Of a stretch of DNA of 41,613 nucleotides, positions 3,964 through 41,613 are shown one piece after another. Every line of letters begins with the position of its first letter. The stretch's first letter is position 1. The notes under the pieces were generated by a model that searched no databases, was not told where the DNA came from, and worked only from the letters and a program-made list of their open reading frames with translations. The DNA comes from a virus. The stretch lies in the IMG/VR virus record IMGVR_UViG_3300036846_000521, positions 1 to 41,613 of that record. One strand, given 5' to 3'. Made by a program: the position numbers and the translations under genes.

Positions 3964-5492
3964 GCGACGACCTCCTCGGTTTCGAGCGTGGTGAAGAGCT
4001 CGACGTTCGTGCGAATCGCGATCCGCGCCGCGGCGTCGGCGCCGACGAGCGGCGCCAGATCAGCGGTCAGTTCCCGGTTCCAGCGTTCGATCTCGGCGAA
4101 GAAGATCGAGGCGCGCTCGCGCGGCGGATGCTTCGCGAGCCGCACCAGTTGGCGCGCGCGCGTCGCGTCGATCGCCGTGGCGACGAGCGCGTTGCCGGCG
4201 TCGCCGGTATCCCCGGTCCCGGTGTCCTCGGGAATCGGATCGCCGGAGTCGGCCGGCGTCAGGCCCGGCACGCGGGCCGGGCCGCCTTGTTGCTGCGCCA
4301 GTTGATCAGCGGTCGGATCGTCGGTGATCTTCGGCAGGTTCAGGCGGCCGCGCGCCTCGTTGGCCGTCATGACCGGCCGGCCGACCAGGACGCGCAGCGC
4401 GGAGGCTTGCTCCTCGAAGCTCCCTTGGAGTTTCGCCGCGATGTTGAATTCGATATAGACGTTGTCTTGATCGTCGCATTCGATGAGCAGCTGCCGTTCA
4501 ATTTCCTGCGTCAGCATTTCGATCGTGGGCCCGAGCGAGTCCTGGTACAGCTGCTTGTGTTGCTCGCGAATGTTCGAGAAGGTCGCGTGATCGAGAATGC
4601 CGATCGACGGCTGCGGGACGTTGAATTCCGCGGCGGTGACTTCGCGACGCTGCTTGCCGCCCTGGATGTACTCCGAATCCTTCGGTGAAAACGCCGTCGG
4701 CTTGAACTGCATCCCGTCCTCGAGCACGGCGACGAGGCCCGAGTTGCCGGCGCCGCTGAAGCGTTGCTGCCACTGCTCGCGAAACGTTTGCTTCTGGCCT
4801 GGCGTCCACTTCGGTGCTTCCCGCGGGCGCTCGATCACGCCCTCGTGCCGCGACGCGTTCTGCCAGTAGTAATGGCGATGCGCCGTCGCGGCGGCTTCCT
4901 CGCACACGATCGGCTGCAGCGTGTCGAGATGCGAGAGGCCCATCAGCGGGTCGAGCGGGTTGTAGCCGCCGAAGTAGACGAGATCGCTCGGCGCGAATTC
5001 CTGTCGCTTCCCGGTCGCGGGATTCGTCCATAGGAACGCGCGCGGCAGCAGGCCGCCGATGATCCGCATTTGGTCGGGCGGCAGGCGCAGCAGCCCGATC
5101 GCGTTCTCATTCCACGTTTCGTTGAAATAGCGCAATTTGAGCCAGTACGCGTTTTTGTAGACGCCGAGATCGCCGAGCAGCGACTCGATCAGGCGGTACT
5201 GCGTCATCGCCGGGTTCGGGTTGGCGAGCCAGCGGGATAGCTGGTGATCGGTCAGCCGTACGCGGTCGTTGTCGTCGACGCGGCGGTAGACGTGAATCCC
5301 GAGTTGCGCGACGTTGCCGGAGAGAAAGTCGATCGGAATCCGGATGTTGGGTTGCGACGCGTAGGTCTGCGCGTACGCCTGACTCCACTGCGAATGCGTA
5401 TAGCCGGCCCGCGCGAAGATCGTGCTGTCGGTGGCGAACCGGAACGGCGGCGGCACGACGGCTTGGAGCTCGCCGCCGGATTGAATGATCAC
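3960..5492 (-). CDS. Portal protein (HK97-family type)
   Basis: 510-aa ORF in the canonical position upstream of protease and capsid. Sequence reads as HK97-type portal, with a Gly/Asp/Thr-rich region near the C-terminus. Confidence 0.88.
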   Translation of the reverse strand: MIIQSGGELQAVVPPPFRFATDSTIFARAGYTHSQWSQAYAQTYASQPNIRIPIDFLSGNVAQLGIHVYRRVDDNDRVRLTDHQLSRWLANPNPAMTQYRLIESLLGDLGVYKNAYWLKLRYFNETWNENAIGLLRLPPDQMRIIGGLLPRAFLWTNPATGKRQEFAPSDLVYFGGYNPLDPLMGLSHLDTLQPIVCEEAAATAHRHYYWQNASRHEGVIERPREAPKWTPGQKQTFREQWQQRFSGAGNSGLVAVLEDGMQFKPTAFSPKDSEYIQGGKQRREVTAAEFNVPQPSIGILDHATFSNIREQHKQLYQDSLGPTIEMLTQEIERQLLIECDDQDNVYIEFNIAAKLQGSFEEQASALRVLVGRPVMTANEARGRLNLPKITDDPTADQLAQQQGGPARVPGLTPADSGDPIPEDTGTGDTGDAGNALVATAIDATRARQLVRLAKHPPRERASIFFAEIERWNRELTADLAPLVGADAAARIAIRTNVELFTTLETEEVVA

Positions 5493-14651: not shown

Positions 14652-15922
14652 CACGCGACCTCGACGCAATACCGCACGTACGCGTGCTCGACGCCGTTCC
14701 AGGGCCGGTCGGCGACGAGCGAGGTGCCGACGCGGCGGAAGGATTCGAACGGGCCGCCGGGTGACGGACGCCATTCGTCGGCGCCGGCGTCCGTCACGCA
14801 GTAGATCGGCGTTTTGCTCTCCTCTGCCGGCACGGTGTTGCCGTTCGCGTCGACCGTGGTCGCGTTCGCGCGCGCGACGGAGCGATAACTCTCGGTGCCG
14901 TCGGCGTTCGCGATGATGTCGAATTTCATGACCTCGAAGTCGGGGTTCGTTTTCTCGAAACGCGTTTCGATGAACAGCATGAGCGGTCCTCCTGGAGACG
15001 GTTCGGGTTCCGGTTCGGGCGCCGGTTCGGGATCCGGCGGTTCGGGATCCGGCGGTTCGGGATCGGGCGGTTCGGGATCGGGCGGATCCGGCGGCTCGGG
15101 ATCCGGCGGCTCGGGGTCTGGCGGATCCGGCGGCACCGGCGGGTTGTCGGCCGACGGCGGCAGCGCCTCGAGTTCCGCCGGCGTGAACGACAGCAGCTGC
15201 ACGTCGGCGTCGGCCTGCGTCAGGGACCAGACGATCGAAATCAGTTCCGTCGTCTGGTCGACGTAAATGTCGTAGTAGTAGTAACTCGCACTCGGCGCGC
15301 CGATCAGGTAACCGTCGCAGACGAGCGCGCCGTCCGACTTCCGCTGATAGACCAGCCGATAGCGACCGGCGGCCGGTGAATACGCCGCGCGAAACGCCCA
15401 CGCCTTTTCCGCCGGGAAAGAGACATCCTCGGAATTGCTGTACGGGTCCTCGCCGAGCATCCAGATCGCGGCGCCGCCGCCGAGCAGTTGGATGTCGTGC
15501 GCGTCGCCGTCGCTGAGCCGCCAGCGGCCCGGTCCTGGCTTATTCGGATCGGCCGGGTCATAGGCGTACGCGAGCTCGATCACGTCCCACGGCCCGTAGC
15601 TATTGCGGAGGACCTTGAGCGCGAGCGCGCCATCCGGCGACGTGCCGCGGACGGCGACGGCGGCGCCCGGCCAGCGGCGCCCGAGCGAATCGTAGACCGT
15701 CAGGTCCTCATTGCGCAGCCAGGCGGCCAGGCGGCCGCCGGCGGTGACGGTGCCGGCATTCGCGCGCGCGAGCTCGGTGCCGTCGCTCAGGACAATTTGG
15801 CACGTCGGCACGCCGTCGACGACTTCCGCGTGCGTGCAATCCTGAAAGGCCGTACGCGTGGTGTCGAACCACTCCTTGCGCAGCGTCGCGATCTGGCCGG
15901 TGACGGGTTCGAAGTTCGGCAT
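14651..15922 (-). CDS. Two-domain hypothetical protein joined by a (PEPPD)n linker
   Basis: 423 aa with a GGAGAG RBS. A beta-rich ~265-aa N-domain is followed by PPVPPDPPDPEPPDPEPPDPPDPEPPDPEPPDPEPPDPEPAPEPEPEP and a ~110-aa C-domain. Confidence 0.75.
   Translation of the reverse strand: MPNFEPVTGQIATLRKEWFDTTRTAFQDCTHAEVVDGVPTCQIVLSDGTELARANAGTVTAGGRLAAWLRNEDLTVYDSLGRRWPGAAVAVRGTSPDGALALKVLRNSYGPWDVIELAYAYDPADPNKPGPGRWRLSDGDAHDIQLLGGGAAIWMLGEDPYSNSEDVSFPAEKAWAFRAAYSPAAGRYRLVYQRKSDGALVCDGYLIGAPSASYYYYDIYVDQTTELISIVWSLTQADADVQLLSFTPAELEALPPSADNPPVPPDPPDPEPPDPEPPDPPDPEPPDPEPPDPEPPDPEPAPEPEPEPSPGGPLMLFIETRFEKTNPDFEVMKFDIIANADGTESYRSVARANATTVDANGNTVPAEESKTPIYCVTDAGADEWRPSPGGPFESFRRVGTSLVADRPWNGVEHAYVRYCVEVA
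14997..15140. repeat. 15-bp tandem repeat (about 9 units) encoding the PEPPD linker
   Basis: ggttcgggatccggc / ggttcgggatcgggc / ggatccggcggctcg units read directly. Boundaries are approximate. Confidence 0.85.
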
Positions 15923-21194: not shown

Positions 21195-21527
21195 TTAGGA
21201 GCGATCGGCGAGGGCCGATCGGCTCGGGGTCTTGAGTCGGGCTGGCTTCGACGTGCGCCGAGGTTTGGGCGGCGCCGTCTCCGCGTCATCGTCGTCGCGC
21301 GTGCGGCGGCCGTGGCGCTCCGGGTCGGGAATCGCAGCAAACGTCAGGAGTTCGTCGGGTTCCAGGTTGAGCGCGGCCGCGACGCGGACGACCGTGTCGT
21401 AATCGGCGAGCCGTAGCTGCCGCTCGCCGCGCTCCATCCGACAGAGCCCGGTATTGTCGACGCCAGCCCGTTCAGCCAACTCTTTTTGAGAGAGGCCCGC
21501 AATTTTTCTTGCAATGCGGAGACTCAT
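21195..21527 (-). CDS. Cro-like XRE-family HTH regulator (first gene of lytic arm)
   Basis: 110 aa. IARKIAGLSQKELAERAGVDNTGLCRMERGER is a classic Cro/CI-type HTH. Divergent from the CI-like gene, with a consensus promoter immediately upstream. Confidence 0.85.
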   Translation of the reverse strand: MSLRIARKIAGLSQKELAERAGVDNTGLCRMERGERQLRLADYDTVVRVAAALNLEPDELLTFAAIPDPERHGRRTRDDDDAETAPPKPRRTSKPARLKTPSRSALADRS

Positions 21528-21545
21528 CGTCGCTTCCGGTCGGCT

Positions 21546-21573
21546 ATTATGACGCGGGGTTGTTGAATGTCAA
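21546..21573 (-). promoter_or_regulatory. Sigma70-type promoter for the leftward (lytic) arm
   Basis: Minus strand: TTGACA (21573-21568), 16-nt spacer, CATAAT (21551-21546). About 12 nt of leader containing GGAAG precede the ATG at 21527. Confidence 0.65.
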
Positions 21574-21588
21574 TACTTGATTTAGACT
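21560..21588 (+). promoter_or_regulatory. Candidate promoter for the CI-like repressor
   Basis: TTGTTG (21560-21565), 17-nt spacer, TAGACT (21583-21588). The -35 elements of the two promoters interdigitate over the TTGA-ATG-TCAA-TAC-TTGA half-sites (21563-21580). Confidence 0.35.
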
Positions 21589-21632
21589 CCGGCGCGCGAC
21601 GTGTTCTGCAACTCAGCCGATCAAAGGAGATC

Positions 21633-22205
21633 GTGTTGCCTGCGCCCCGTCAATGGACCGACGATCTCGAGGCGCTCGCGCGCGCCGGTCGCCGCGTCAT
21701 CGCTTATCGCGCCGCCCACGGCACAATGCGGCATCGCAAACGGATCCCGATGACGCAGGTCGAGTTCGCGAAGAAGGCCGGCGTGTCGGTTGGCTGCGTC
21801 GCGGCGTTCGAGACCGGGTTGCGCAGCACGCGGCGTGACTCCGTGCGCCGCATCGCGGCCGCCTGCGATCTCACCGTCGACGAGCTCCTGGCGGATGACG
21901 TCCCGGCGGCGGCGCGGCCCGCGCCACTCGAGGCGCCCGGCTTCACCGACGAGGTCCTGGCGATCGCGCGGATCTTCGATCTCGCGCATACCGAGGTCCG
22001 CGTCCGCGTGAAGGCGATCCTGCTCGAGCACTTGGCGCAGCGCACCGATCGGCCCGGCGTCGCCTTGCGTGACGCGCTGCGCGCGTTCTTTCCCTCGTCG
22101 CCGTCGTCGTCCGCTCAGGAACAGGAGGACCTGTCGTCGTCGTCAGCGGCCGCGACGGGATCAGGCTTTCCGGAATCGCTCCGAAAGAACGGCAGCGGTA
22201 AGTAG
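21633..22205 (+). CDS. CI-like XRE-family repressor (alternative long start ATG 21567)
   Basis: HTH in MTQVEFAKKAGVSVGCVAAFETGLRS plus a ~100-aa C-terminal domain. GTG 21633 and TTG 21636 are preceded by AAGGAG (21624-21629). The ATG at 21567 overlaps the -35 of the lytic promoter and lacks an RBS. Confidence 0.8.
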   Translation: MLPAPRQWTDDLEALARAGRRVIAYRAAHGTMRHRKRIPMTQVEFAKKAGVSVGCVAAFETGLRSTRRDSVRRIAAACDLTVDELLADDVPAAARPAPLEAPGFTDEVLAIARIFDLAHTEVRVRVKAILLEHLAQRTDRPGVALRDALRAFFPSSPSSSAQEQEDLSSSSAAATGSGFPESLRKNGSGK

Positions 22206-22307
22206 GGTCCCGATCGGGCGCCGCCGGCCGTTGAAGGCGACGCTTCGATTTCGCGATCGCCGTCTCGAGCCGCCCGACGTCGCGGCCGATCACGGCCGGA
22301 GGAGCGG

Positions 22308-22994
22308 ATGACCGTCAAAGCTCCCTTCCCGAACGTCCAGTGTGATCGGCATCCCGACGCCGCGCCGGCGCCCGGCTATTCCGTCTGCCGGCACGTCGCC
22401 GACGCCGGCGCCGCGATCGCGCACTTCGAGGCCGCGTCCGCGCGCGCGCTCGGCGCGGTCCTCTGTCGGCCGTGCGCCGAGGCCCCCCACGAGCTACGGC
22501 TGTGGGACCTGCGGTTACTCTGCGCCGGCTGCGTCGCCGTGCTCGCCGGCGTGTCGATTGTCCGCGAGGCGTCAACGGCGGAACAGTTCGCTGCGCTCGC
22601 CGCACGAGCCGCGCGCGCGCGGCTCGTGCCCGGTGACCGCCACGAGTGCAGCGACTGGCTGATCAACGGCCGGTGCGCGTTGTGCGATCGCGTGGTCATG
22701 CCGCTCGTCGTCGGCGACGTCGTACGCGTCGGCGCCGCGTGCCTGGCGAATCCCCCTAAGAGCCTGGCGGTGATCGTCGAGATCTACGATCGCGACGCCC
22801 GCCGCGGCGATCGCTCGGGTGCGACGCTGCTTTTTGCGAACGGATCCTTCGACGGGTTCTCGCCGATTGACCTCGACGTCTTTCGAGTCGTACGCGTGCG
22901 CCACGAGCCGGCGCTCGCCGACTATCAGTTTCAGTCCGCGTTGGCGCTCCATGCCGACGTCGCGCGCGGCCGTTTCGGGATCGTGTGGTCATGA
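22308..22994 (+). CDS. Hypothetical Cys-rich protein (228 aa)
   Basis: GGAGGAGCGG RBS then ATG. Several Cys pairs (CRPC, CAGC, C..CALC). First gene of a coupled operon. Confidence 0.7.
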   Translation: MTVKAPFPNVQCDRHPDAAPAPGYSVCRHVADAGAAIAHFEAASARALGAVLCRPCAEAPHELRLWDLRLLCAGCVAVLAGVSIVREASTAEQFAALAARAARARLVPGDRHECSDWLINGRCALCDRVVMPLVVGDVVRVGAACLANPPKSLAVIVEIYDRDARRGDRSGATLLFANGSFDGFSPIDLDVFRVVRVRHEPALADYQFQSALALHADVARGRFGIVWS

Positions 22995-23467
22995 TCGACG
23001 AGCTCGCCATGCACTATGTCCTCGACGAGGCCGGCGAGCCGCGCGCCGTCGATCTCCTGACCTGGGCCCTCTGGCTCGAGACCGCGGATCGGGTCGTCCT
23101 CCAGGCGTCGATCGATCGCCGTGGTCGGACGCGCGAGCTTCCGTTCCGGCGGCACACGCGCGGCGGCGGCTGCGAGGTATCGACGGTCTTTCTCGGGTTG
23201 AATCATGCGTTCGCCGGCGGGCCGCCGGTCCTCTGGGAAACGATGATCTTCGGTGGGCCGCTCGACGGAGCACAGCAGCGCTACCGATCGCGGCTCGACG
23301 CGCTGCTCGGGCATGCCGCCACGGTCGCCCGCGTGCAGGCCATCGGGCCGCGGCTGCCGCGGCGCCTGAAACGCGCCTTGAAGAAACACGACGAGTGGTC
23401 GCGGCGACTCTCGCCAAGTGAGGCGCGGCTCGTCGCGCGATTCGCTCGACGACTGGAATGCGCGTGA
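22991..23467 (+). CDS. Hypothetical protein (158 aa)
   Basis: ATGA overlap with the upstream stop. The VSTVFLGLNHAF..PVLWETMIFGG motif recalls a widespread phage protein of unknown function. Confidence 0.7.
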   Translation: MIDELAMHYVLDEAGEPRAVDLLTWALWLETADRVVLQASIDRRGRTRELPFRRHTRGGGCEVSTVFLGLNHAFAGGPPVLWETMIFGGPLDGAQQRYRSRLDALLGHAATVARVQAIGPRLPRRLKRALKKHDEWSRRLSPSEARLVARFARRLECA

Positions 23468-23817
23468 CGCCGATCCAGCGGGGCGAGATCGTGCGGCTGT
23501 CGATCGGCACCTGGTCGACCGAGGCGTTCGTCGCGGCCGCCTCCCCGAACGGCCGATCACTATTCGTGATCTTCGACGGGGCCGCGCCGGTTGGCGGCGG
23601 CGCCGGCGTGCTCGTCGGTAGCTTGGCGCTCCTGCAGGACGACGCCGGCGCCTGGCATGAGATCGTGCTCGATACGCCCGTCGTCGTCGAGCCGGTGCCG
23701 CGATCGTTTCTCTGTCCGCGATGCGGCGCCGTGAGCTACAACCAGACGGATGTCGCCGAGCGATACTGCGGCCGCTGTCACGCGTTCGTCGACGACGCGG
23801 AGCTCCCGAGATCATGA
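23458..23817 (+). CDS. Hypothetical protein with C-terminal zinc ribbon (119 aa)
   Basis: CPRCGAVSYNQTDVAERYCGRCH is the zinc ribbon. The start is ATG 23458 or GTG 23464 (GTGA coupling). Confidence 0.65.
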   Translation: MRVTPIQRGEIVRLSIGTWSTEAFVAAASPNGRSLFVIFDGAAPVGGGAGVLVGSLALLQDDAGAWHEIVLDTPVVVEPVPRSFLCPRCGAVSYNQTDVAERYCGRCHAFVDDAELPRS

Positions 23818-24110
23818 CCAAGAAACAAGCGCGCGCGCTCGTCGGCGCCGCGATCGACTCGAAGACGAAGATGGCCGCGTCCGCGATGGCGCTCGTGCTC
23901 TTTACTGATCACTACGAGCGCGATCCGGTCGCCCTGATGCAGTTCGCCCTGGCCATCCTGCTCGACAAACCGTTGTATCTGCTCGCGCCGCGCGGCCGCC
24001 TGATCCCGGCGAACGTGCGCGCCGTCGCGGCCGGCATCGAGTTCTACGAGCCCGGCGACGAGAAGGCCGCCGCGCAGCGCCTGCTCGCGAAGGCGATCGG
24101 AGGTTCGTGA
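23814..24110 (+). CDS. Hypothetical protein (98 aa)
   Basis: Internal Met32 of ORF 23721..24110, with an ATGA overlap onto the upstream stop. Confidence 0.65.
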   Translation: MTKKQARALVGAAIDSKTKMAASAMALVLFTDHYERDPVALMQFALAILLDKPLYLLAPRGRLIPANVRAVAAGIEFYEPGDEKAAAQRLLAKAIGGS

Positions 24111-24418
24111 TGGCGATACGAATGAATACCGACGGCACGCGGATCGCCGTCGCGCCGTCGCGCGGCCCGGCGTTCTCCCTGGCCGAGCTCCAGGCCGTCG
24201 TCGGCGGTTACATCGAAGCCGTGCGGCTGCAAGACGGATCGTGGATGTTCGTCAACGAGGACGGGAAACGCCTGCAGCTGCCGCTCAATCGCAGCGCGAC
24301 GCTGCTCGCGCAAACGTGGGGATTCTTGCCGCCGTGGGATCAGATCGTCGGCGACGTGATCGTGATGACGACGCTCGAGGCCGGCGGCGCGGACGAGGCG
24401 CTCGAGGAGCGCGGGTGA
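24107..24418 (+). CDS. DUF3846-like protein
   Basis: 103 aa. SLAELQAVVGGYIEAV...FVNEDGKRLQLPLNRSAT...IVGDVIV matches the DUF3846 pattern as recalled. Confidence 0.6.
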   Translation: MMAIRMNTDGTRIAVAPSRGPAFSLAELQAVVGGYIEAVRLQDGSWMFVNEDGKRLQLPLNRSATLLAQTWGFLPPWDQIVGDVIVMTTLEAGGADEALEERG

Positions 24419-24804
24419 CCGGCTATCCGCCCGACTGGCCGCGCTGCGCGTGCGGCGCGCCGGTGCTCGACGGCCATCTCACGTGCGGCGCGGCCGGCTG
24501 CGACGAGGCCCGCGCGCGCGCCCGCCGGGCCGAGGACCAGGCCGTCGCCGTGTGGCTCGGCGCCGAGCTCATCGCGCTCGAGCCGATGGAGCTCGGGTTG
24601 AAACCGGAATCGGTATTCACGCTCGTCGGCCTCGTGCAGCTCGCACTCCGGCATCCCGATCTGCCGGCGGGCCCGCGTGCGTTCGGTGAGCAGTTCGTCG
24701 GCGCCGCGCGCGCATATTTCACCGGCTGTCCGACCGTCCTCGACGTGATCCGGAAAGGCGATGATCCGGACTACGACGTGAGGCCGCGAGGGTCCGTTGG
24801 CTGA
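24415..24804 (+). CDS. Hypothetical protein (129 aa, GTG start)
   Basis: GTGA overlap with the upstream stop. The N-terminus is Cys-rich (CACG..LTCGAAGC). Confidence 0.6.
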   Translation: MTGYPPDWPRCACGAPVLDGHLTCGAAGCDEARARARRAEDQAVAVWLGAELIALEPMELGLKPESVFTLVGLVQLALRHPDLPAGPRAFGEQFVGAARAYFTGCPTVLDVIRKGDDPDYDVRPRGSVG

Positions 24805-25249
24805 GCACCTGATTCGGCCGACGCACTCGTGTTTCGACGACGCGATCGCGTATCTCGAGATGCGGGTGCGCATCGATCCCGATCTCGTGTTCGGCGACGC
24901 GCTCGTGCTCGTGCACGGCATCGCCCGCGCCGCCGCGGCGACCGACGCGGTCGCGTTCGAAGCGCTCGCGCCTGGCGATCCCTTCGCGCATGCGTGGGTC
25001 GAAGAGGGCGAGCTCGTGTGGCAGGCCGGCGTGCTCGAGGACGGCGCGCAGGTCGCGTTCGCCGTCGCGCGCACGGAGTTCTACGCGCAGCTGCGCATCG
25101 AGGCCGCGACGCGCTATACGTTGCGCCAGGTCTGGGAGGAGAACTGCCGCTCGGGGACGTTCGGGCCCTGGCGGCCTGAATACCAGGCGCTCTGCCGCGG
25201 CGGCGCCGGCCGGCCGCCAATCGGTGAATTCCCGCCACATTGCGGGTAA
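24797..25249 (+). CDS. Hypothetical protein (150 aa, TTG start)
   Basis: GAGGG lies upstream of the TTG. Protein-like sequence (HSCFDDAIAYLEMRV...LVHG...HAWVEEG). Last gene before the first 31-bp repeat. Confidence 0.6.
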   Translation: MAEHLIRPTHSCFDDAIAYLEMRVRIDPDLVFGDALVLVHGIARAAAATDAVAFEALAPGDPFAHAWVEEGELVWQAGVLEDGAQVAFAVARTEFYAQLRIEAATRYTLRQVWEENCRSGTFGPWRPEYQALCRGGAGRPPIGEFPPHCG

Positions 25250-25250
25250 G

Positions 25251-25281
25251 TTGCAAACCCTATGGTTTCGAGCGAACATCG
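25251..25281 (+). repeat. 31-bp direct repeat, copy 1 (TTGCAAACCCTATGGTTTCGAGCGAACATCG)
   Basis: Matches 28090..28120 at 30 of 31 positions (G/A at position 24). Contains the dyad AAACC-CTAT-GGTTT. Starts 2 nt after the stop of 24797..25249. Confidence 0.95.
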
Positions 25282-25328
25282 ATCTCGTCGTCGGGCGGCA
25301 ATGGCGCCGCCGGCGCTCGAAAGGGATC

Positions 25329-25547
25329 GTGACCTTGAAGAACCTGATGGATACCGTGAATGCGGCCGCGGCGGCCAAGGCCGTGCGCGAGCGCGTCGCG
25401 CGCGCGAAACAGTTGATCGCCGACCTCGAGCTCGTCGTCGAGACGCTCGAGGACGAGCCGACGTGGCCGGTCGCCGGGTCGCTCGGGCATATCAACGAGA
25501 AGCTCGCCGAGGTCCTGGCGGGTTTTCCGACGGTGCCGAGGTCCTGA
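25329..25547 (+). CDS. Hypothetical coiled-coil protein (66-72 aa; start GTG 25329, TTG 25335 or ATG 25347)
   Basis: C-terminal part of ORF 24990..25547: ...MDTVNAAAAAKAVRERVARAKQLIADLELVVETLEDEPTWPVAGSLGHINEKLAEVLAGF. Confidence 0.55.
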   Translation: MTLKNLMDTVNAAAAAKAVRERVARAKQLIADLELVVETLEDEPTWPVAGSLGHINEKLAEVLAGFPTVPRS

Positions 25548-25771
25548 TGGCGGCCGCTCGCAAGCGCGGATACTCGCGCGAGTTCCCGGTGAACATGGAA
25601 ACCCGCAAGCGCTACCTGCTCGACGACATCCCGGCGGGGATGTGGATCGCCGTGCGCGCGAAGGCGAAGCGCGACGGCCTGTCGTTGCGCGCGCTCGTGC
25701 TGTCGCTGCTCGCGCGTTGGCTGTCGGGCGAGATCGCGATGGTCGCGCCGCCGGCGCCGGAGGCCGAGTAG
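25547..25771 (+). CDS. Small RHH/Arc-like DNA-binding protein (74 aa), candidate int-cassette regulator or RDF
   Basis: TGATG coupling to the upstream gene. KRYLLDDIPAGMWIAVRAKAKRDGLSLRALVLSLLARWL reads as strand-helix-helix. Confidence 0.5.
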   Translation: MAAARKRGYSREFPVNMETRKRYLLDDIPAGMWIAVRAKAKRDGLSLRALVLSLLARWLSGEIAMVAPPAPEAE

Positions 25772-25864
25772 ATCGTTTCGGTCGTGGGGGTCCGCGCGCC
25801 CCGTCGAAATGCGCGCGGTCGCGCGGCGGTACTCGCCGGCGAATCGGATCGATATGAGGCACCT

Positions 25865-26140
25865 ATGTTTTCGACTCACGAACTGCGGCAGTTAGCTCGC
25901 GCCGGCGCGCTCGCGCAGGCCACACGGATCGTCACCGAATTCCCCGATATCCTTCCCGACTTGAATGCCCTGGCGGCCGGCCCGCGGCGCCGGGTCCTCG
26001 TCGCCGTCGACGAATCCGGCACGAACGGCGATCGCCCGCGGCGCACGATGTCGGCGGCCGCGCGCCAGCGGATCGGTCGCGCGCAGCGCGCCCGGTGGCG
26101 GAAGTTCAAGCAAGAGCACGCCGCGAAGGAGGCCCGGTGA
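25865..26140 (+). CDS. Hypothetical protein (91 aa)
   Basis: Internal Met28 of ORF 25784..26140 with GAGG upstream. Basic C-terminus MSAAARQRIGRAQRARWRKFKQEH. GTGA-coupled to int. Confidence 0.6.
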   Translation: MFSTHELRQLARAGALAQATRIVTEFPDILPDLNALAAGPRRRVLVAVDESGTNGDRPRRTMSAAARQRIGRAQRARWRKFKQEHAAKEAR

Positions 26141-27948
26141 ATCGCTCCTCGTTCCGCGTGATCGACGGCGCGGCCGCGCCGGGCCCCGGCACGATCGCCG
26201 CGATCTACGCGCGCAAATCGACCGAGCAGGACGTCGACGAAGAGGCGAAGTCCGTGACCCGGCAAGTCGAGCACGGGCGCGCGCTCGCCGCGCAGCATGG
26301 CTGGATCGTCCACGACGAGCTCGTGTTCGTCGACGACGGGATCTCCGGCGCCGAATTCACGCGGCGTCCCGGCTTCCTGCAGTTGATGGGATCGTTGAAG
26401 CCGGCGCCGCCGTTCCAGGTCCTGATCATGAGCGAGGAGTCGCGGCTCGGGCGCGAATCGATCCAGACGACCGGCGCCTTGTTCAAGTTGATCGCGGCCG
26501 GCGTGCGCGTGTTCTGTTATCTCGGCGGCGGGTACGAGCGCCGGCTGGAAACGGCGACCGAGAAGGCGATGTTCGCGCTGCAGTCGCACGCCGACGAAAT
26601 GGAGACCGAGCGGGCGCAGCAGCGCGCGTTCGACGCGGCGATCCGGAAGGCGCGCGCCGGCTATGCGACCGGCGGCCCGATCTACGGGTATGACCTCGAG
26701 CGCGTGTTCGCGCCGAACGGCGCGCGCTCGCATACCGAGTATCGGATCAACCGCGACCAGGCGGCCATCGTCCTGCAGATCTTCACGCGCGCGGCCGCCG
26801 GTTCCGGCTATCAGCGGATCGCGCGTGAGCTCAACGACGCCGGCGTGAAGCCGTCGCGCGGGCGCCAATGGTCGCCGAATTCGATCCGCGGGATTGCGAT
26901 GCGGACGATGTATCGCGGCCAGATGGAATGGAACAAGAGCAGCGGCGGGGTCAAATTCGGCACGGCGAAAAAGCGCGCGCGGCCCGCGAGCGATTGGATC
27001 ACCGTCCCGGTGCCGCAGCTGCGCCTCGTCGATGACGTCCTCTGGTATGCGGTACAGGAGCGCCGGCACCGGGTGACGGAGAAGCTCGTTGCCGCGAGCG
27101 CGAAGTTCGGGCGCGGCGGCCAGCGCCGCGACGGCGATTCGCGCTACCTGCTCACCGGCTTCGCGCGCTGCTCGGTCTGCGACGGCCCGGTCTGCGTCAT
27201 TTCGCGGCCGCTCAGCGAGCGCCGGATCGGGCCGGCCCGCGGGAAGCGCATCCGCGTGATCGACCACGCGGCCGGGCGCCTCGTCGCGTACGGGTGCCTG
27301 CGCTATCAGCGGCGCGGGGTCCGGTTCTGCACGAACGCCAACACGGTGCCCGTCGATCTTGTCGAGGCCGCGGTCCTCGAGGCGCTCGCCGCGGTCCTCG
27401 TGAAGAGCGCGCGGCCGAAGCGCATCCTGTCGCTCGTGCGGGAGGAGCGGGCCGGCAGCGCGCCGAAGCTCGAGCGAATGCAGCGCGATCTCGCGCGGCT
27501 CGAGGCCGAGTGCCGGCGCGGGGCCGACGCGCTGCTCGCCGGCGGCAATCTGCCGATGCTGCTCGAGGCGCTTCGCGATCGTGAGGCGCGCGCCGGCATG
27601 CTCCGGTCGCAGCTGACGGCGGCCGCGAGCCGGTCGACCGGCGGGGTCGACGGCGCCGCGCTCGAGCGCCTAATCCTGGCCGAGCTCAAGTCGGCGCAGG
27701 CGGCGCTTACCGGGCGCGGCATGCCGGCGGCGCGCGAGTTCCTGAAGAAATGGCTGCGGGGGTCGATCGTCCTCACGCCGGTCGCGCATCCGACGCGGCG
27801 CGACGGGCGCGCGTTCGACTTCGCCGGCGTGCTCGATCTCCGGCCCTTCGGCGGCGCCGTCGCGGCGTTCCCTCACTCCGGCGTATCCCCCACGGGTTCC
27901 GCCGATATGTGGGGGGCATCGTTCCGGGGCCTCGTGCGGGCCGCCTAG
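26137..27948 (+). CDS. int: Large serine recombinase (phage integrase type)
   Basis: 603 aa from GTG 26137 (AGGAGG upstream). Resolvase-type N-domain AIYARKSTEQD, recombinase domain (GGPIYGYD), Cys zinc ribbon (CSVCDGPVC...C...C) and a long coiled coil. Confidence 0.93.
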   Translation: MNRSSFRVIDGAAAPGPGTIAAIYARKSTEQDVDEEAKSVTRQVEHGRALAAQHGWIVHDELVFVDDGISGAEFTRRPGFLQLMGSLKPAPPFQVLIMSEESRLGRESIQTTGALFKLIAAGVRVFCYLGGGYERRLETATEKAMFALQSHADEMETERAQQRAFDAAIRKARAGYATGGPIYGYDLERVFAPNGARSHTEYRINRDQAAIVLQIFTRAAAGSGYQRIARELNDAGVKPSRGRQWSPNSIRGIAMRTMYRGQMEWNKSSGGVKFGTAKKRARPASDWITVPVPQLRLVDDVLWYAVQERRHRVTEKLVAASAKFGRGGQRRDGDSRYLLTGFARCSVCDGPVCVISRPLSERRIGPARGKRIRVIDHAAGRLVAYGCLRYQRRGVRFCTNANTVPVDLVEAAVLEALAAVLVKSARPKRILSLVREERAGSAPKLERMQRDLARLEAECRRGADALLAGGNLPMLLEALRDREARAGMLRSQLTAAASRSTGGVDGAALERLILAELKSAQAALTGRGMPAAREFLKKWLRGSIVLTPVAHPTRRDGRAFDFAGVLDLRPFGGAVAAFPHSGVSPTGSADMWGASFRGLVRAA

Positions 27949-27977
27949 CCCGGCGCCGGCGCCCGCCGGCCCTGTGT

Positions 27978-28042
27978 TGCCCCCCAGGATCGCTCGGTTC
28001 TGGGGGCCCGTATGCCCCCCAGGATCGCTCGGTTCTGGGGGG
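27978..28042 (+). repeat. Two tandem 29-bp units (35-bp period), each a CCCCCAG...CTGGGGG hairpin
   Basis: TGCCCCCCAGGATCGCTCGGTTCTGGGGG occurs at 27978-28006 and 28013-28041. A further arm, CCCTCCAGAA, lies at about 28050. Alternative pairings are possible. Confidence 0.9.
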
Positions 28043-28089
28043 CCGGCCGCCCTCCAGAAATTCCCTAGAACCCTGGCAATTCGGCCGAC

Positions 28090-28120
28090 TTGCAAACCCT
28101 ATGGTTTCGAGCAAACATCG
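28090..28120 (+). repeat. 31-bp direct repeat, copy 2 (TTGCAAACCCTATGGTTTCGAGCAAACATCG)
   Basis: See 25251..25281. It lies in the int-distal intergenic region, 56 nt upstream of the next gene. Confidence 0.95.
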
Positions 28121-28176
28121 TTAGGTCGGTTGGCGATGGGGCCGGTCGGCGGTAGCGAAAAAAGGACGGCTCGAAA

Positions 28177-28413
28177 TTGGCGAATCCCTTCAAGAACATC
28201 GCGACGCGGATTGTGAATGCCGAGGAGCGCTTCGTCGCGTTCGCGATGGAAGCCGCGGGCCTGTCGCGCGCCGAGGCCGAGCGCGCGCTCGCGACGCTGC
28301 GCCGCGGCGGAAAGCGCGCGCCGCTGAAGATCGATGCGGTTGGCGGCGGCTTCACGTTCGCGCACGGCGGCTTCGCCGAGCCTGCGGTGCTCCGTCGCGC
28401 CGCGGGCCTCTAA
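28177..28413 (+). CDS. Hypothetical protein (78 aa, TTG start)
   Basis: AAGGA lies ~10 nt upstream. Helical sequence MANPFKNIATRIVNAEERFVAFAMEAAGLSRAEAERALATLRRGG. Confidence 0.55.
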   Translation: MANPFKNIATRIVNAEERFVAFAMEAAGLSRAEAERALATLRRGGKRAPLKIDAVGGGFTFAHGGFAEPAVLRRAAGL

Positions 28414-28443
28414 TTCTCGGAAATCAAAAGGACCGAATCGAAC

Positions 28444-28770
28444 ATGCTTGTTACCCTGCGGATCACCAGCGTCGACATGAACGGGTTTTGCGGCCGCGAT
28501 CATCATCCGGTGCCGGCGATGATCGGCGAGCTCGTGACGCTCATCGGCTGCGCGCCGGTCTACTCGCCGGCCGAAGTCGACGAATTCCGCGCCGAGTTCA
28601 CCGAGGCCGATGCCGACGCGGCCGCGCGCCTGATGCTCTATACCTGCCGGCGCGCCGACGGGTCGCTCGTCGAGCTCGTCGACTTCGAGGTCGAGGTCCT
28701 GTCGGCCGCGGCGCCGACGTTGCGTGGGTTCGTCCGCGGCGGCGGCGCCGACGAGGAGGCCCGGTCATGA
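28444..28770 (+). CDS. Hypothetical protein (108 aa)
   Basis: ATG with AAAGGA upstream and protein-like composition. Confidence 0.65.
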   Translation: MLVTLRITSVDMNGFCGRDHHPVPAMIGELVTLIGCAPVYSPAEVDEFRAEFTEADADAAARLMLYTCRRADGSLVELVDFEVEVLSAAAPTLRGFVRGGGADEEARS

Positions 28771-29204
28771 TGCTGTTCTGGGGCCTCATCGGCGCGATCA
28801 TCGGAATCGCGGCCGCGCAGAAGCGCGGGTTCCACGTCGCGGCCGGCGTCATCGGCGGGTTGCTGCTCGGGCCGCTCGCCGTGTTCCTGTTCTGGACCAC
28901 GACCGACAACAAAAAGTGTCCGCATTGCGCCGAGTGGGTTCGATGGGATGCGAAGGTCTGCAAGCATTGCGGCCGCGACCTCGTCGTCGCGCCGCCGGTC
29001 GCGCCCGCGCCGCCGGCGCCCGTCTCGAGCGCCCCCACAGCGGCCGCGCCTGCGGCGCCTGGCGGCCTCGAGGCCGGCACGACCGACGTCAACGTCCGCG
29101 GCCGCTGTCGGGCCTGCAGCGGCCTTGTGCCGGCCAATGCGGCGACCTGCCCGTCGTGCCGCGCGCGCGTCCGCGTCGACTATCGCTTGCGGCGGGTGAT
29201 CTGA
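28767..29204 (+). CDS. Membrane protein with two TM helices and two zinc-ribbon units (145 aa)
   Basis: ATGA coupling to the upstream gene. MMLFWGLIGAIIGIAAAQ...GGLLLGPLAVFLFW, then CPHC...CKHC, a Pro/Ala linker and CRAC...CPSC. Confidence 0.7.
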   Translation: MMLFWGLIGAIIGIAAAQKRGFHVAAGVIGGLLLGPLAVFLFWTTTDNKKCPHCAEWVRWDAKVCKHCGRDLVVAPPVAPAPPAPVSSAPTAAAPAAPGGLEAGTTDVNVRGRCRACSGLVPANAATCPSCRARVRVDYRLRRVI

Positions 29205-29392
29205 TGCCGGTCGTGCTCTCGTCGGCGCAGCGCGAGATGCTCCGGGCCGCGATCGACTCGCACGTCTACTGGCAGTTAGCCGATCGTAACTACCGTCGCG
29301 ACGGGTTCGTCCTCGAGCCCGGCTCGGATGATGCGGCCGTCGCCGAGGACATTCGCGCGTTCCAGGCGCTCGCCGATCTGCTCGCCGACTAG
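29204..29392 (+). CDS. Hypothetical protein (62 aa)
   Basis: TGATG coupling to the upstream gene. MPVVLSSAQREMLRAAIDSHVYWQLADRNYRRDGFVLEPG... Last gene of the rightward arm. Confidence 0.55.
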   Translation: MPVVLSSAQREMLRAAIDSHVYWQLADRNYRRDGFVLEPGSDDAAVAEDIRAFQALADLLAD

Positions 29393-29435
29393 AAGGCGTC
29401 GGCGCCGCGCGCGCCGGGCTTCCCTTCGTGCCCCC

Positions 29436-29459
29436 GCGCCGGCCGATCGTGGCCGGCGC
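29436..29459. terminator. Perfect 9-bp GC stem-loop in the convergence zone of the two arms
   Basis: GCGCCGGCC-GATCGT-GGCCGGCGC. On the plus strand a T5 run follows only ~20 nt later, so it is not a textbook intrinsic terminator. Confidence 0.4.
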
Positions 29460-29479
29460 CGGTTCCCCAGGCGACCAGG

Positions 29480-29502
29480 TTTTTCCTTTCCTCCTTTCTC
29501 CC
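29480..29502 (+). other. 23-nt pure pyrimidine tract (TTTTTCCTTTCCTCCTTTCTCCC)
   Basis: Read directly, and striking in this GC-rich genome. On the plus-strand transcript it is a C/U-rich, G-poor stretch, as in rut sites. On the minus strand it reads as AAGGAGG-like purines with no ORF behind it. Confidence 0.5.
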
Positions 29503-30224: not shown

Positions 30225-33200
30225 TCATTGCTCCCGCCACGACAGAATCGAGACGGGTTGATCGTGATTCGGCGCGGCCGTGTTTTGCGTGCCGGCGAAG
30301 AAGCCAATTTGATCGGGGCCGCCGGTGACGTACGTGGCGCGCGCCTCGGCGTAGATCGTCAGCCAGTTCTGGCCGTCCTCGCTGATGGAGAACGTCAGGG
30401 TTGTGCCGTCGTCCGCGATGCGATACCAGCGCACGATCGCGCCGATCGGTTGGGCATACGAGAAATCGGCGAAGGCCGCCGTCGCGCTCGTCGTGCCCCA
30501 GACCATGATGGCCGGGCCGGGCACCGTCGCGCTCGCGACGAATTCGGCGATGCCGAAGGTCCGGATGCGGCCGCTCGAGCTATTCCGGAGCAGCAGGCCC
30601 CAACCGTGATTGTTCTTGATCATCGGCGGCGCGAGCACGAGCGCCGTCACGGTGTACGGCGTCGCCGGCGCCGCCTTGAGCCGGCCGGTGAGATTGCTCA
30701 CGTTGCCGACGCCGGCGCCGAGCAGGAGCAGCGCGTCCTTCGTCTCGGTGATCGTGCTCCCGTTCTGATTCAACCACGACCAGGCGGCGCCGGTCGGCGG
30801 CGCCGTGAGCGGAAATGACGGGCCCCACGGCATCCAGGATGCGCCGCTGTCGCGCGCGATCGAGAGGCCATCGGTGGGCAGGTACAAGCGCCCGGCCGTG
30901 CCGGCGGCCGGTCGCGCGGCGAACGTATCGCTCAGCGTCGCGGCGCCCGCCGGCGGCGCCGTTTGCGGCGACGCGAGGAATGCCTGGAAGTAGGTATCCA
31001 GGCCCGCGACCGTGCCGGTGATGTTGACCGATCCCGAACCGGCGGTGAAGTCGACTTGCACGCTCGCGACGATCTGCGCGCCGGCTGCGAGATCGACCAG
31101 GCCGCCGAGATCGTGGCGCTCGCCTCCGGTGAGATTCGCGCCGGCGAGGTCTTGCTGCAGGAGCGGCACGTTGTCGCTGAACCGGAAGATCTTCAGGTGC
31201 ACGACGCCGGCGATCGCCGCGGCGAAGGTGACTTGCACGCGCGCGAAATACCGGCCGGCGACCGGCGCGGTCAGCCGGCGCGGCGCCGCGAGGTTGAACA
31301 TCCCGGCCGTGTCGTACAGGACCGTGTCATACGGCAGGTTCGCCACGGTCGCGTGCGCGAGGGCCTGCGTCGCCGTGAGCAGGACCTGCGCCGCCGTCGC
31401 CGGCAGGATGGCCGGTCCTGGCGGCCCTGGCGGGCCCCAGGCGCCGTCGTCGCCGTCCAGGCCCGGCACGTAGGGGGCCGGCGCCCCGGCCGCGCCTGGC
31501 GGCCCAGACGGCCCTGGCGGGCCCGCCGGGCCGGGCAGGCCGTCGGCGCCGTCCTCACCGTCCCGCGGGATCGGGCCGGCGCCGGTCGCGCCGCCGCCGC
31601 CGGCGCTCGCGTCGACATAGCCCTTCGTCGCCGCGTCGGTGCTCGAGCTCGGCGGCGCCAGGTCCGTGAGGCCGTGGCCGCCCATCGATTGATCGGCCGT
31701 CCACGGCTGCGAGCCGTCGGTCTTGACGACCGGGACCGGGTCCGTCGCCGCGGCCGTGATGCGGCCGGCGGCATCGACGGTAAACGTCGTCAGCTGCGCG
31801 CCGCTCCCGTAGCTGCCGGGACTGACCGGCGTCGGCGCCAGTTTGTCGGAATCGATGCAGCCGGCGAGCTTGCCCGCGGGAATCGACTTGTCGGCAATCG
31901 TCGTCGTGCCGCCGGGATCGGACGTGACGGCGCCGTCGAGCCGCGGTTGCTTGGCTTGGCTCGCCGCGACGTCGACGGCCTGTTGGAGGATGCTCGCGAC
32001 CGGATCGGCGCGCCGGATCGCCGGCGCGAACGGCGGCACGGCCGTCACCAGGAAGCGCGGCCGCTCGCCGATCGCCAGGAGCTCGAGTTGATCGATCTCG
32101 ACGTTGGTGATCACCCACGAGCCGGAAATCGCCGGCGCCGTCATCGCGATCGCGACGGTCTTGCCGACGAAGGTCTTGAGGTCCCGCGTCGCATACTTCA
32201 CCGTCGGCACCGGCTTGGCGTGTTGCTGCAGCGCGATCCGGGCCCGTTGCGCGCACTCGTCGATCGTGGTGAGCGTGTTGTCGTTGATCGGCAACGGACA
32301 CCGGCCGTACTTGCCCATCGAGACGCCGTCCTCGACGGTGACGAGCAGACCAGCGGCGCCGCGGACGGTGACGATGTTGCCGAGTTGCGTGAAGTCGTTC
32401 TCGATCGTGACGGCCTGGCCTGACTCCGGCCACAGCAGATCGGGGTTGCTCGGCGTGACGTCGGCCGGCGGGTCATAGCCGGAATCGATCGCGAACACGC
32501 GCAGAGTCGTGCCGGTCATGTAGAGTTTCGCGCCGGCCTTGTCGCAGACGTCGAGGAGCACCGTCCACAGATCGCGCGAGCCGTCGAGTTGAATCGTGAC
32601 CGTCGGCAGCGCACTTTCGACCACGACGGCAAACCCCGGCGCCCACCTGGTCATCAGCGCGTGGATCACCGTCGTCGCCGACGTCGCCGTCCAGGTGCCG
32701 GTCGGAAATGCCTTGCTCACCAGGTGCGCGTAGTCGAGGCAATCGCAATCGTACGCCGGGGTATGCGCGCCGCCCTCGACGCGCTCGGCGACCTTCGTGA
32801 TCACGCCGGCGAAGAGCACTTCGCCGAAACACGACCAGGTCACCGGCTGATAGCCATCCGGCTCGATCGGGGTCGAGAACGTGCAGCTGCTCGGTTGGCC
32901 GAGGGTCTGGGAAATCCGCGCCGGCGCATTCTCGGTGCGCGCCAGCCGCGAGGCGCCGCCCGATGGGGTTCGGAAGACGACATCGATCGGCGGCGCCGTG
33001 TCGGCGTAGAGGAATCCTTCGGCGAGCGTGACGGCGTCGCCGTCGCTGTTCGTGACGACGACGTCGACGGACGCGGCGACGTGCGCCGGCGCGGTCACTT
33101 GCACGGAGGCGTCGGTGAAGACGCCGACCGTCGCCGCGCTGCCGGCGATGGTCACCGTCGGCGCGATCGTGGGATCCGCCAGGCCGGTGAAGCCGCGGCC

Positions 33201-33299
33201 GCTGATCTGCACCACGGTGCCGCCCACCGTCGGCCCGGCGTTCGGCATCAGGCCCGTCACGACGACGGCGCGCGGTTCAAACGTGAAGGTAGCCGGCAT
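30225..33299 (-). CDS. Tail tip / host-specificity fibre protein (mosaic, 1,024 aa)
   Basis: IPT/TIG domain (aa 1-95), tail-hub-like region (~110-440), fibre motif DAATKGYVD, collagen-like Gly-X-Y stretch (aa ~575-629, nt 31413-31577), C1q-like jelly-roll (~640-770) and a ConA/LamG-like C-terminus (~785-1024). Confidence 0.85.
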   Translation of the reverse strand: MPATFTFEPRAVVVTGLMPNAGPTVGGTVVQISGRGFTGLADPTIAPTVTIAGSAATVGVFTDASVQVTAPAHVAASVDVVVTNSDGDAVTLAEGFLYADTAPPIDVVFRTPSGGASRLARTENAPARISQTLGQPSSCTFSTPIEPDGYQPVTWSCFGEVLFAGVITKVAERVEGGAHTPAYDCDCLDYAHLVSKAFPTGTWTATSATTVIHALMTRWAPGFAVVVESALPTVTIQLDGSRDLWTVLLDVCDKAGAKLYMTGTTLRVFAIDSGYDPPADVTPSNPDLLWPESGQAVTIENDFTQLGNIVTVRGAAGLLVTVEDGVSMGKYGRCPLPINDNTLTTIDECAQRARIALQQHAKPVPTVKYATRDLKTFVGKTVAIAMTAPAISGSWVITNVEIDQLELLAIGERPRFLVTAVPPFAPAIRRADPVASILQQAVDVAASQAKQPRLDGAVTSDPGGTTTIADKSIPAGKLAGCIDSDKLAPTPVSPGSYGSGAQLTTFTVDAAGRITAAATDPVPVVKTDGSQPWTADQSMGGHGLTDLAPPSSSTDAATKGYVDASAGGGGATGAGPIPRDGEDGADGLPGPAGPPGPSGPPGAAGAPAPYVPGLDGDDGAWGPPGPPGPAILPATAAQVLLTATQALAHATVANLPYDTVLYDTAGMFNLAAPRRLTAPVAGRYFARVQVTFAAAIAGVVHLKIFRFSDNVPLLQQDLAGANLTGGERHDLGGLVDLAAGAQIVASVQVDFTAGSGSVNITGTVAGLDTYFQAFLASPQTAPPAGAATLSDTFAARPAAGTAGRLYLPTDGLSIARDSGASWMPWGPSFPLTAPPTGAAWSWLNQNGSTITETKDALLLLGAGVGNVSNLTGRLKAAPATPYTVTALVLAPPMIKNNHGWGLLLRNSSSGRIRTFGIAEFVASATVPGPAIMVWGTTSATAAFADFSYAQPIGAIVRWYRIADDGTTLTFSISEDGQNWLTIYAEARATYVTGGPDQIGFFAGTQNTAAPNHDQPVSILSWREQ

Positions 33300-41429: not shown

Positions 41430-41613
41430 GCGACGATCTCCTGGCAGACCGCGATCGTCTCGACGCCGAGCTCCTCGGGCGAGGCGACGCCGGTGATCTG
41501 CAGCGTGCGGCCGTTGAAGAGGATCTGGCACTTCGTGGTCAGCTGCGGGTGATACGGCATCGTGACCACGTGGGTCGCTTGCGCCAGGACCGACGTGCTC
41601 ATCGGCGCGAGCC
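41426..41613 (-). CDS. Head-closure protein, 3' part (continuation of 308..1 across the circular junction)
   Basis: ...MSTSVLAQATHVVTMPYHPQLTTKCQILFNGRTLQITGVASPEELGVETIAVCQEIVA, stop TGA at 41426-41428. Nt 41487-41613 duplicate 1-127. Confidence 0.8.
   Translation of the reverse strand, partial: LAPMSTSVLAQATHVVTMPYHPQLTTKCQILFNGRTLQITGVASPEELGVETIAVCQEIVA
41487..41613. repeat. Terminal overlap, right copy (identical to 1..127)
   Basis: Same 127-nt string as 1..127; the window ends exactly at the end of the match. Confidence 0.97.

Follow-up and report, generated by a model that had tools for sequence, protein, structure and literature searches.

Why should a phage carry the same 31 bp of intergenic DNA on both sides of its integrase cassette? 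The question is raised by the IMG/VR virus record IMGVR_UViG_3300036846_000521, analyzed here from position 1 to position 41,613 (41,613 nucleotides, referred to as the window), in which a first-pass annotation had noticed 31-bp direct repeats around a serine-integrase gene and had offered three readings of them: a duplicated regulated promoter with a dyad operator, a module boundary, or a pair of recombination sites. The repeats themselves were confirmed by a fuzzy search of both strands, in which the 31-mer TTGCAAACCCTATGGTTTCGAGC(G/A)AACATCG was found in exactly two copies (25251-25281 and 28090-28120), both intergenic, both on the + strand and 30/31 identical, and no third copy was detected on either strand of the window with up to 3 mismatches allowed. 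They do enclose the four genes that had been named, encoding a protein of 72 amino acids (aa), listed there as a coiled-coil protein, a ribbon-helix-helix (RHH)-like protein, a 91-aa protein and the integrase. The reading that we favor, and consider quite probable on the comparative evidence given below, is that the repeats are two copies of one regulated promoter with a built-in operator, to which the phage's own RHH protein would bind. It draws on the position and strand of the repeat, its homology to the promoters of relatives, its recurrence within related genomes and the co-occurrence of operator and RHH gene.

The repeat and its counterparts in related phages

Each 31-mer would form a sigma-70-type (housekeeping) promoter made up of TTGCAA, a spacer of 17 nt in both copies and GAACAT or AAACAT, the spacer opening with a dyad operator of 12-14 bp, (A)AACC-CTAT-GGTT(T). 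The inner dyad, AAACC-CTAT-GGTTT, is self-complementary at 12/14 positions, covers the end of the -35 hexamer and the first 12 nt of the spacer, and occurs nowhere else in the window with up to 3 mismatches (Table 1). The sole mismatch between the two copies lies at position 24 of the 31-mer (G in copy 1, A in copy 2), which is the first base of the -10 hexamer, and the 31-mer found no match in 100 dinucleotide-preserving shuffles. Copy 1 begins 2 nt past the TAA (25247-25249) of a 150-aa open reading frame (ORF), its distance to the GTG at 25329 being 48 nt; copy 2 sits between the integrase stop (27948) and a TTG start at 28177, with the start codon 57 nt downstream. The sample has also been assembled independently (L005, Logan SRR11835973), and that assembly is identical to the window across the region, with both copies of the 31-mer present.

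The route to relatives was the 150-aa protein encoded just 5' of copy 1, a search with which yielded 4 viral contigs, 78 soil-metagenome loci and one contig of a Cystobacter metagenome-assembled genome (loci are given below by L numbers). Neither blastn of 24700-29500 against deposited phage genomes nor tblastn of the integrase against deposited phages gave a match, and an integrase-based search of viral contigs gave no relatives. In L009, whose version of the 150-aa protein is 53% identical, the stop of that gene is followed by TTGACA-ACTATATAGTTCTATGG-GATACT and by a leader, CGTCGGGCGGCAATACCGCCGCCC...GAAAGGA...GTGACC, that is clearly homologous to window 25287-25335. A search with the L009 leader gave L086, L087, and L088, and loci obtained through the RHH gene added L089 and L090. 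The leader motif GTCGGGCGGCAAT-N3-GCCGCC(GAC)...GAAAGGA is kept in all of these (window 25287-25328; L009 3624-3670; L086 9762-9815, - strand; L087 1757-1800; L088 825-880, - strand; L089 7285-7330; L090 1090-1125).

When the sequences are aligned on this leader, every relative has TTGnnn, a spacer of 17-19 nt and nAnnnT in the register of the window's TTGCAA-N17-GAACAT, and it is this shared register that leads us to read the 31-mer as a -35 hexamer, an operator-bearing spacer and a -10 hexamer. The window's TTGCAA agrees with TTGACA at 4/6 positions and lines up column for column with the TTGACA or TTGCAA of L009, L087, L088, and L089, and the -10 hexamers that the relatives have in the same register are better ones (GATACT, GACTAT, TAATCT, TATACT, TATAAT and similar). 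The hexamers hold their register while the spacer differs phage by phage, opening with an AANN-ATAT-NNTT dyad of 12 bp in L009 (AACTATATAGTT), L088 (AATGATATCATT) and L089 (AAGCATATGCTT), to be compared with AACCCTATGGTT in the window. The hexamers in register, the analogous dyads and the presence of such repeats before other operons thus support the promoter reading of the first-pass annotation. That annotation had left two choices for the -10 element, and here the cross-phage register speaks for (G/A)AACAT after N17. Its other choice, TATGGT, has upstream -35 candidates at 14-15-nt spacing that are not shared by the two copies, and was rejected, the alignment placing TATGG inside the operator dyad.

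The first gene after the conserved leader is not homologous between phages, from which it appears that promoter and leader behave as a portable expression cassette. The leader hairpin shows almost no covariation, which fits an RNA role or a DNA role alike. At the corresponding place, relatives that have no RHH gene (L002/L012 2696-2732 and L006 8579-8613) carry a different promoter-like element, consisting of direct repeats GACTTAGG-N3-4-(G)ACTTA(A/G)G located 5' of TAACAT or TATACT; within it, TCGAGGTAACATCG of L002 agrees with 12/14 positions of the right half of the window 31-mer. A search for this right half (TCGAGNNAACATCG) had matches nowhere but in L002/L012, where they lie at the homologous position, an isolated lead that is consistent with a shared ancestry of the -10 region.

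In the window, both leader hairpins begin at the base of the predicted transcription start (25286 and 28125), ~7 nt past the -10 hexamer; their stems differ, and that of copy 2 contains G-U pairs. Local alignment of one leader with the other scored 24, compared with 12.9 +/- 2.3 for shuffled sequences (1/500 shuffles reached 24), and similarity 5' of the two 31-mers was not significant. The alignments indicate that a unit of promoter plus leader was duplicated in the window. As the 31-mer has stayed 97% identical (30/31) while the adjoining leaders have decayed to ~70% identity with gaps, selection seems to have acted on the promoter-operator, that is, on contacts with RNA polymerase and a repressor.

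Repeated copies are also found within related genomes. The dyad is present five times in 2 kb of L009 (3594, 4067, 4085, 4699, and 5556, the last with 2 mismatches), and 3 of these dyads lie inside TTGACA-N17-TAnnAT promoters that follow intrinsic terminators, each before a different gene. L086 has two inverted copies, 81% identical over 31 nt, before divergent operons, of which one begins with a leader-bearing small gene and the other encodes the RHH protein, a small protein and a serine integrase; L088 has three copies in a divergent promoter region. Comparison of these genomes indicates that repeating its own promoter-operator is a trait of this phage group and does not depend on an integrase lying between the copies. 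Since the copies in L009 flank unrelated single genes and those in L086 are inverted, the bracketing of the integrase cassette in the window would be incidental. The intergenic DNA of L009 is itself repeated (3990-4065 and 4628-4690), each cassette comprising TATACATTCCA, a GGCCCG-loop-CGGGCC-TTTTT terminator and an operator-promoter, and the whole forms a string of single-gene, moron-like units.

Table 1. Features of the window around the 31-bp repeats, and the homologous promoters of four related loci.
Feature	Positions	Strand	Sequence or evidence
Promoter-operator copy 1 (putative)	25251-25281	+	-35 TTGCAA 25251-25256; dyad AAACCCTATGGTTT 25255-25268; -10 GAACAT 25274-25279; predicted start ~25286
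Copy-1 leader, 5' hairpin	25286-25319	+	GTCGGGCGGC-AATGGC-GCCGCCGGC; fold; followed by Shine-Dalgarno-like AAAGGGA and GTG 25329
72-aa protein, first gene of copy-1 operon	25329-25547	+	L005 gene call, GC3 frame plot
74-aa Arc-like RHH protein, proposed repressor	25547-25771	+	PHROG 6506, AvtR profile, AlphaFold2, operator co-occurrence
91-aa protein, stop overlaps integrase start	25865-26140	+	Homologues directly 5' of serine integrase in L006, L086, L089
Large serine recombinase (integrase), 603 aa	26137-27948	+	Pfam Resolvase, Recombinase, Zn_ribbon_recom; PHROG 95 integrase, E = 7e-74
Tandem hairpin pair, between integrase stop and copy 2	27979-28043	+	CCCCCCAGGATCGCTCGGTTCTGGGGG twice, 35-bp period
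Promoter-operator copy 2 (putative)	28090-28120	+	-35 28090-28095; dyad 28094-28107; -10 AAACAT 28113-28118; predicted start ~28125
Copy-2 leader hairpin, diverged	28125-28150	+	GTCGGTTGGC-GATGGG-GCCGGTCGGC; fold
Four-gene operon past copy 2	28177-29392	+	78 aa 28177-28413; 108 aa 28444-28770; 62 aa 29204-29392; third gene in next row
145-aa membrane double-zinc-ribbon protein, third gene of copy-2 operon	28767-29204	+	
L086 homologous promoter			TTGCGG-AATGATATGTATTATGGGG-TATACT
L087 homologous promoter			TTGACA-CGCGTTCGCGAATCCGC-TAATCT
L088 homologous promoter			TTGCAA-ATGATATCATTCTGTGA-GACTAT
L089 homologous promoter			TTGACA-AAGCATATGCTTCCACGC-GATGAT

The RHH family and its putative operator

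The 74-aa RHH protein belongs to a family with at least 396 clusters (90% identity) and the signature KRGYSREFxPHGDTGKRYLLDxIPAGLW. PHROG 6506, "Arc-like repressor," was matched by 15/18 family members (best E = 6e-7), the best profile match in the Protein Data Bank (PDB) was the viral RHH regulator AvtR (4hv0; E = 0.029, in the helix A - helix B region), and an AlphaFold2 monomer model (pLDDT 73) has helices at 30-43 and 47-60 behind an extended segment. No match to an RHH homologue was found by tblastn in deposited phages or plasmids, and searching the literature for the operator sequences returned irrelevant matches only.

The link between this family and the dyad comes from loci in which the two occur together. 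Seven loci (L085, L090, L091, L092, L102, L103, and L104) were fetched solely because they encode an RHH homologue; they have 54-70% G+C and their gene content is otherwise unrelated. All seven have a TTGACA/TTGCAA/TTGACG promoter whose spacer opens with an AAYC(A/C)TATG(G/A)TT dyad, 0.17-1.3 kb 5' of the RHH gene and on the same strand. Counting these seven, an operator-bearing promoter is present 5' of the RHH gene in 9/10 of the RHH loci besides the window, L086 having a related imperfect site. The second operator of L085, AAATCCTATGGTTT, is 13/14 identical to that of the window. A composite search, for a TTG hexamer followed by an AA..TT dyad, was also used, the site being defined as TTGACA/TTGCAA/TTGACG plus a TAT-centered dyad; this site was absent from ~75 control loci (~0.59 Mb) that had been chosen via the 150-aa gene and are without RHH. 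The pattern TTGACRAYCATATGGTT had 9 matches in viral contigs, in AT-rich phages without an RHH homologue, a number that by rough estimate is at chance level and uninformative. By guilt by association with the dyad, the RHH protein is the best candidate, and most likely the protein, that binds the operator. The first-pass annotation had picked out the RHH-like protein for a binding test, a choice that the co-occurrence reinforces.

The operator half-site also appears to follow the residue after YLLD in the predicted beta-strand of the RHH protein: ATGGTT is seen where this residue is D, K or G, ATGATT where it is E or Q, and ATGCTT where it is H, while the L009 variant YLLYK has ATAGTT. This residue may therefore set the half-site, a hint of a recognition code at operator positions 3-4. 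Several of the RHH phages have two adjacent operators, one over or just 5' of the -35 hexamer and one in the spacer, ~16-18 bp apart from center to center (L085 9204-9233; L092 2610-2639; L102 ~4820-4852; L103 ~1355-1384; L104 4215-4244), while the window has one operator per promoter only. In L104 (5001-6673) the RHH gene is directly followed by that of a 490-aa protein with a faint tyrosine-integrase (PF00589) match, and the RHH protein may thus accompany integrases of either class.

A number of observations weigh against the reading of the repeats as promoters bound by the RHH protein. The -10 hexamers GAACAT and AAACAT share only 3/6 positions with TATAAT (A2, A5, and T6), and a consensus promoter scan called neither copy; with hexamers as weak as these (4/6 at -35, 3/6 at -10), promoter activity may be low or may depend on an activator or helper. 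Among the relatives, the dyad of L086 is imperfect and not a clean palindrome, and the spacer of L087 holds a small palindrome of another type, TTCGCGAA. Under the strict composite criterion 9/11 RHH loci are positive, the dyad of L104 being one base off register and that of L086 imperfect. As regards the fold, Pfam RHH models stay below threshold for the family, and Foldseek with the monomer model found no meaningful structural match. The predicted beta-strand, KRYLLDDIP, is acidic and hydrophobic, and the DNA-reading strands of Arc and MetJ are not known to be of this kind. Another protein from the same operons could also be the dyad binder.

Proposed switch and rival explanations

From these comparisons we infer the transcription starts, the binding of the RHH protein and the sign of the regulation as follows. 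Transcription would start from ~25286 and ~28125, at the first base of each leader hairpin. Copy 1 would drive the 72-aa gene, the RHH gene, the 91-aa gene and the serine integrase; the tandem hairpins past the integrase would end this first transcript, and copy 2 would re-initiate into the next four genes. The Arc-like RHH protein would bind the operator between -35 and -10 and block RNA polymerase, such that accumulating RHH would repress its own operon by negative autoregulation and limit the integrase to a pulse. On the second, identical operator it would shut the downstream operon in parallel, placing both operons on one switch. It is moderately likely that many uncultured soil phages have acquired the RHH protein together with its AAYCATATGRTT operator as one portable, self-contained unit of autoregulation, consisting of promoter, operator and, in some of the family, a leader hairpin. 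That RHH oligomers might also bridge the two operators, 2.84 kb apart, loop out the integrase cassette and so couple the shut-off of both operons is pure speculation and quite improbable; such a loop would be a non-CI analogue of OL-OR looping in lambda.

The hairpins that would separate the operons are strongly folded (27946-28092: -86 kcal/mol, z = -5.7) and are probably a transcript-end structure, or possibly attP. By eye, the stems are mismatched as G:T on the + strand, pointing to hairpins in RNA, either a terminator or a stabilizer of the 3' end. An Rfam scan of 24500-29500 found no family. The window pair, CCCCCAG-N12-CTGGGGG twice, lies directly past the integrase stop, and a like tandem arrangement follows the integrase in L006 (10829-10889), the two integrases being only 35% identical. 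The whole 61 bp of the tandem hairpins is in addition a quasi-palindrome and could be attP.

Might the duplicated promoter be regulated by a protein other than RHH? Candidates would be the CI-like helix-turn-helix (HTH) protein (21636-22205), the Cro-like HTH protein (21195-21527, - strand) or the 72-aa product, in which case the RHH protein would do something else, such as acting as an accessory or directionality factor of the integrase. The promoter evidence is identical under both readings, the evidence for the RHH fold is weak, CI-like HTH homologues are present in the window, L009, L086, and L089, and the RHH gene stands in a conserved cassette of RHH, small protein and serine integrase (window, L086, L089) in which it could serve recombination. 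Nonetheless we regard another binder as unlikely. The operator type tracks the RHH gene into unrelated genomes with no serine integrase nearby (L085, L091, L092, L102, and L103), whereas no dyad is found near the CI-like genes or in the CI-Cro intergenic (immunity) region of the window, L009, and L086, and the immunity-region promoters are alike in the window and L089 (TGTCAAT..TAGACT) though their dyads differ. For the 72-aa product there is the further point that the first gene past the leader changes from phage to phage.

The remaining explanations set promoter function aside. If the repeats were module boundaries, homologous recombination between them would delete or swap the integration cassette, which 30/31 direct repeats 2.8 kb apart could in principle do; the relatives are indeed mosaic here, L002 having no integrase at this position and L006 only the 91-aa homologue and the integrase, followed by a gene that is found elsewhere in the window. 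A boundary sequence would, however, be expected to recur, and the search of related phage contigs that the first-pass annotation had proposed did not bear this out: no sequence in the viral, metagenome or genome collections matches the 23-nt core of the 31-mer exactly, and the four related loci first tested have no 31-mer with up to 9 mismatches. The homologous junction has different sequences in the relatives, the repeats of L009 flank non-integrase genes, those of L086 are inverted and could not delete a cassette, and the only other assembly of the phage keeps both copies. Module exchange would also leave unexplained the exact boundary at the -35 hexamer, the strand and the distance to the start codons, all of which promoter function explains, and we consider it very unlikely. 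Were the repeat a functionless, neutral leftover of a recent duplication, this would agree with the decayed leader homology, which shows that a duplication did occur; yet neutrality would not be expected to leave a 31-mer at 97% beside a leader at ~70% with gaps, nor a repeat boundary that coincides with the -35 hexamer, and analogous repeated elements are present in relatives, making this explanation extremely improbable. The attachment (att) sites of serine integrases span 40-50 bp, with the arms of an imperfect inverted repeat on either side of a central dinucleotide, and attL and attR are hybrids that differ from each other. The window repeats do neighbor the integrase gene, and each has a small dyad, but they are near-identical direct repeats located within a complete, non-integrated genome with a 127-bp terminal overlap; the same type of element occurs in phages with no nearby serine integrase and aligns with promoter hexamers in relatives. 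Att-like or res-like sites, which the first-pass annotation had already placed last, are scarcely credible and were rejected.

Genome context and biological meaning

The window is a complete phage genome of ~41.5 kb and 69% G+C, with an exact terminal direct repeat of 127 bp (1-127 and 41487-41613), and is thus closed into a circle or terminally redundant. On the minus strand lies the lytic arm (Cro-like HTH, methyltransferase, large terminase, portal, protease, major head protein, and tail genes, across the window ends), and the + strand from 21636 to 29392 carries the CI-like HTH gene, small genes of no assigned function, the integrase and four further small genes. Protein-family searches with the 72-aa protein found no family match. 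A 110-aa HTH gene (- strand) and a 189-aa HTH gene (+ strand) flank a divergent, immunity-type region (21527-21636), which contains a near-consensus TTGACA-16-CATAAT promoter on the minus strand, in addition to the motif common to L089. In four phages a small protein of 91-108 aa is encoded immediately 5' of the serine-integrase gene, overlapping its start, and has a basic C-terminal motif like RxRIxxAQRxRW (both genes: window 25865-27948; L086 10253-12324; L089 8247-10393; L006 8670-10803); from this placement the small protein is a candidate accessory or directionality factor. L002 (2814-3170) has a homologue of the 91-aa protein and no integrase. Elsewhere in the window, 15-nt-period repeats of the GGTTCGGG type lie within a 423-aa ORF (14999-15130, reverse strand), and a tail-fiber-like protein of 1024 aa (30225-33299) has TIG domains and a collagen-like Gly-X-Y stretch.

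An operator-bearing promoter repeated under a small phage repressor is a well-known and ordinary kind of arrangement. In the immI region of phage P22, the RHH repressors Arc and Mnt act at the Pant operator. P22 Arc/Pant is the closest analogue of the proposed switch, sharing with it a small phage RHH protein, a dyad operator between the -35 and -10 of a sigma-70 promoter and negative autoregulation, with the repressor gene transcribed from the promoter that it represses, as is proposed here. Unlike Arc and Mnt, the window protein has no detectable membership of the Arc or Mnt Pfam families, its 12-14-bp operator differs in sequence and length, and its proposed operator-promoter is duplicated for a second operon, and the first operon includes a serine integrase. 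Near-identical operator promoters at two places under one repressor also recall the related CI/Cro sites at OL and OR of lambda and repeated-unit phage regulons, although the window sites lie outside the immunity region, are probably not bound by the CI-like protein and have one dyad per promoter in place of tripartite operators. Stoperators of the mycobacteriophages L5 and Bxb1, of which a genome has 20-30, are asymmetric sites with a bias in orientation relative to transcription; the immunity repressor binds to them, and they act on elongation. Like them, the window dyad would be a short repressor-binding sequence repeated in the intergenic DNA of a temperate phage, but there are only 2 sites, which are symmetric and lie inside promoter spacers.

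Morons, reportedly described by Hendrix and colleagues, are promoter-gene-terminator insertion units of lambdoid phages and are usually said to be independently regulated. The operator-promoters of L009 resemble them in following an intrinsic terminator and each driving a single non-homologous gene, as does the conserved promoter-plus-leader cassette that precedes unrelated first genes in different phages. The units of L009 differ in sharing one phage-specific operator, which implies a common regulator. AvtR, the solved structure with the best profile match, comes from an archaeal lipothrixvirus (PDB 4hv0); the match is marginal, and host domain and operators differ.

What appears to be new is this RHH family and its operator consensus, neither of which was found in the searched literature or in deposited phage and plasmid collections. 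As the repeat reads as ordinary gene regulation and not as a recombination device, the integrase cassette should not be taken for a mobile sub-element. The analysis also brings to light, as a by-product, an uncharacterized family of Arc-like phage proteins that has no Pfam family and, at 90% identity, numbers at least 396 clusters; it is now possible to give its promoter context and a likely consensus for its operator, along with a hint of residue-to-base specificity. The result is a small, directly testable set of putative repressors and operators of high-GC soil phages, part of which is tied to the expression of a serine integrase. If the reading is true, the integrase operon of a temperate soil phage and the four-gene operon that follows it would be switched on and off together.

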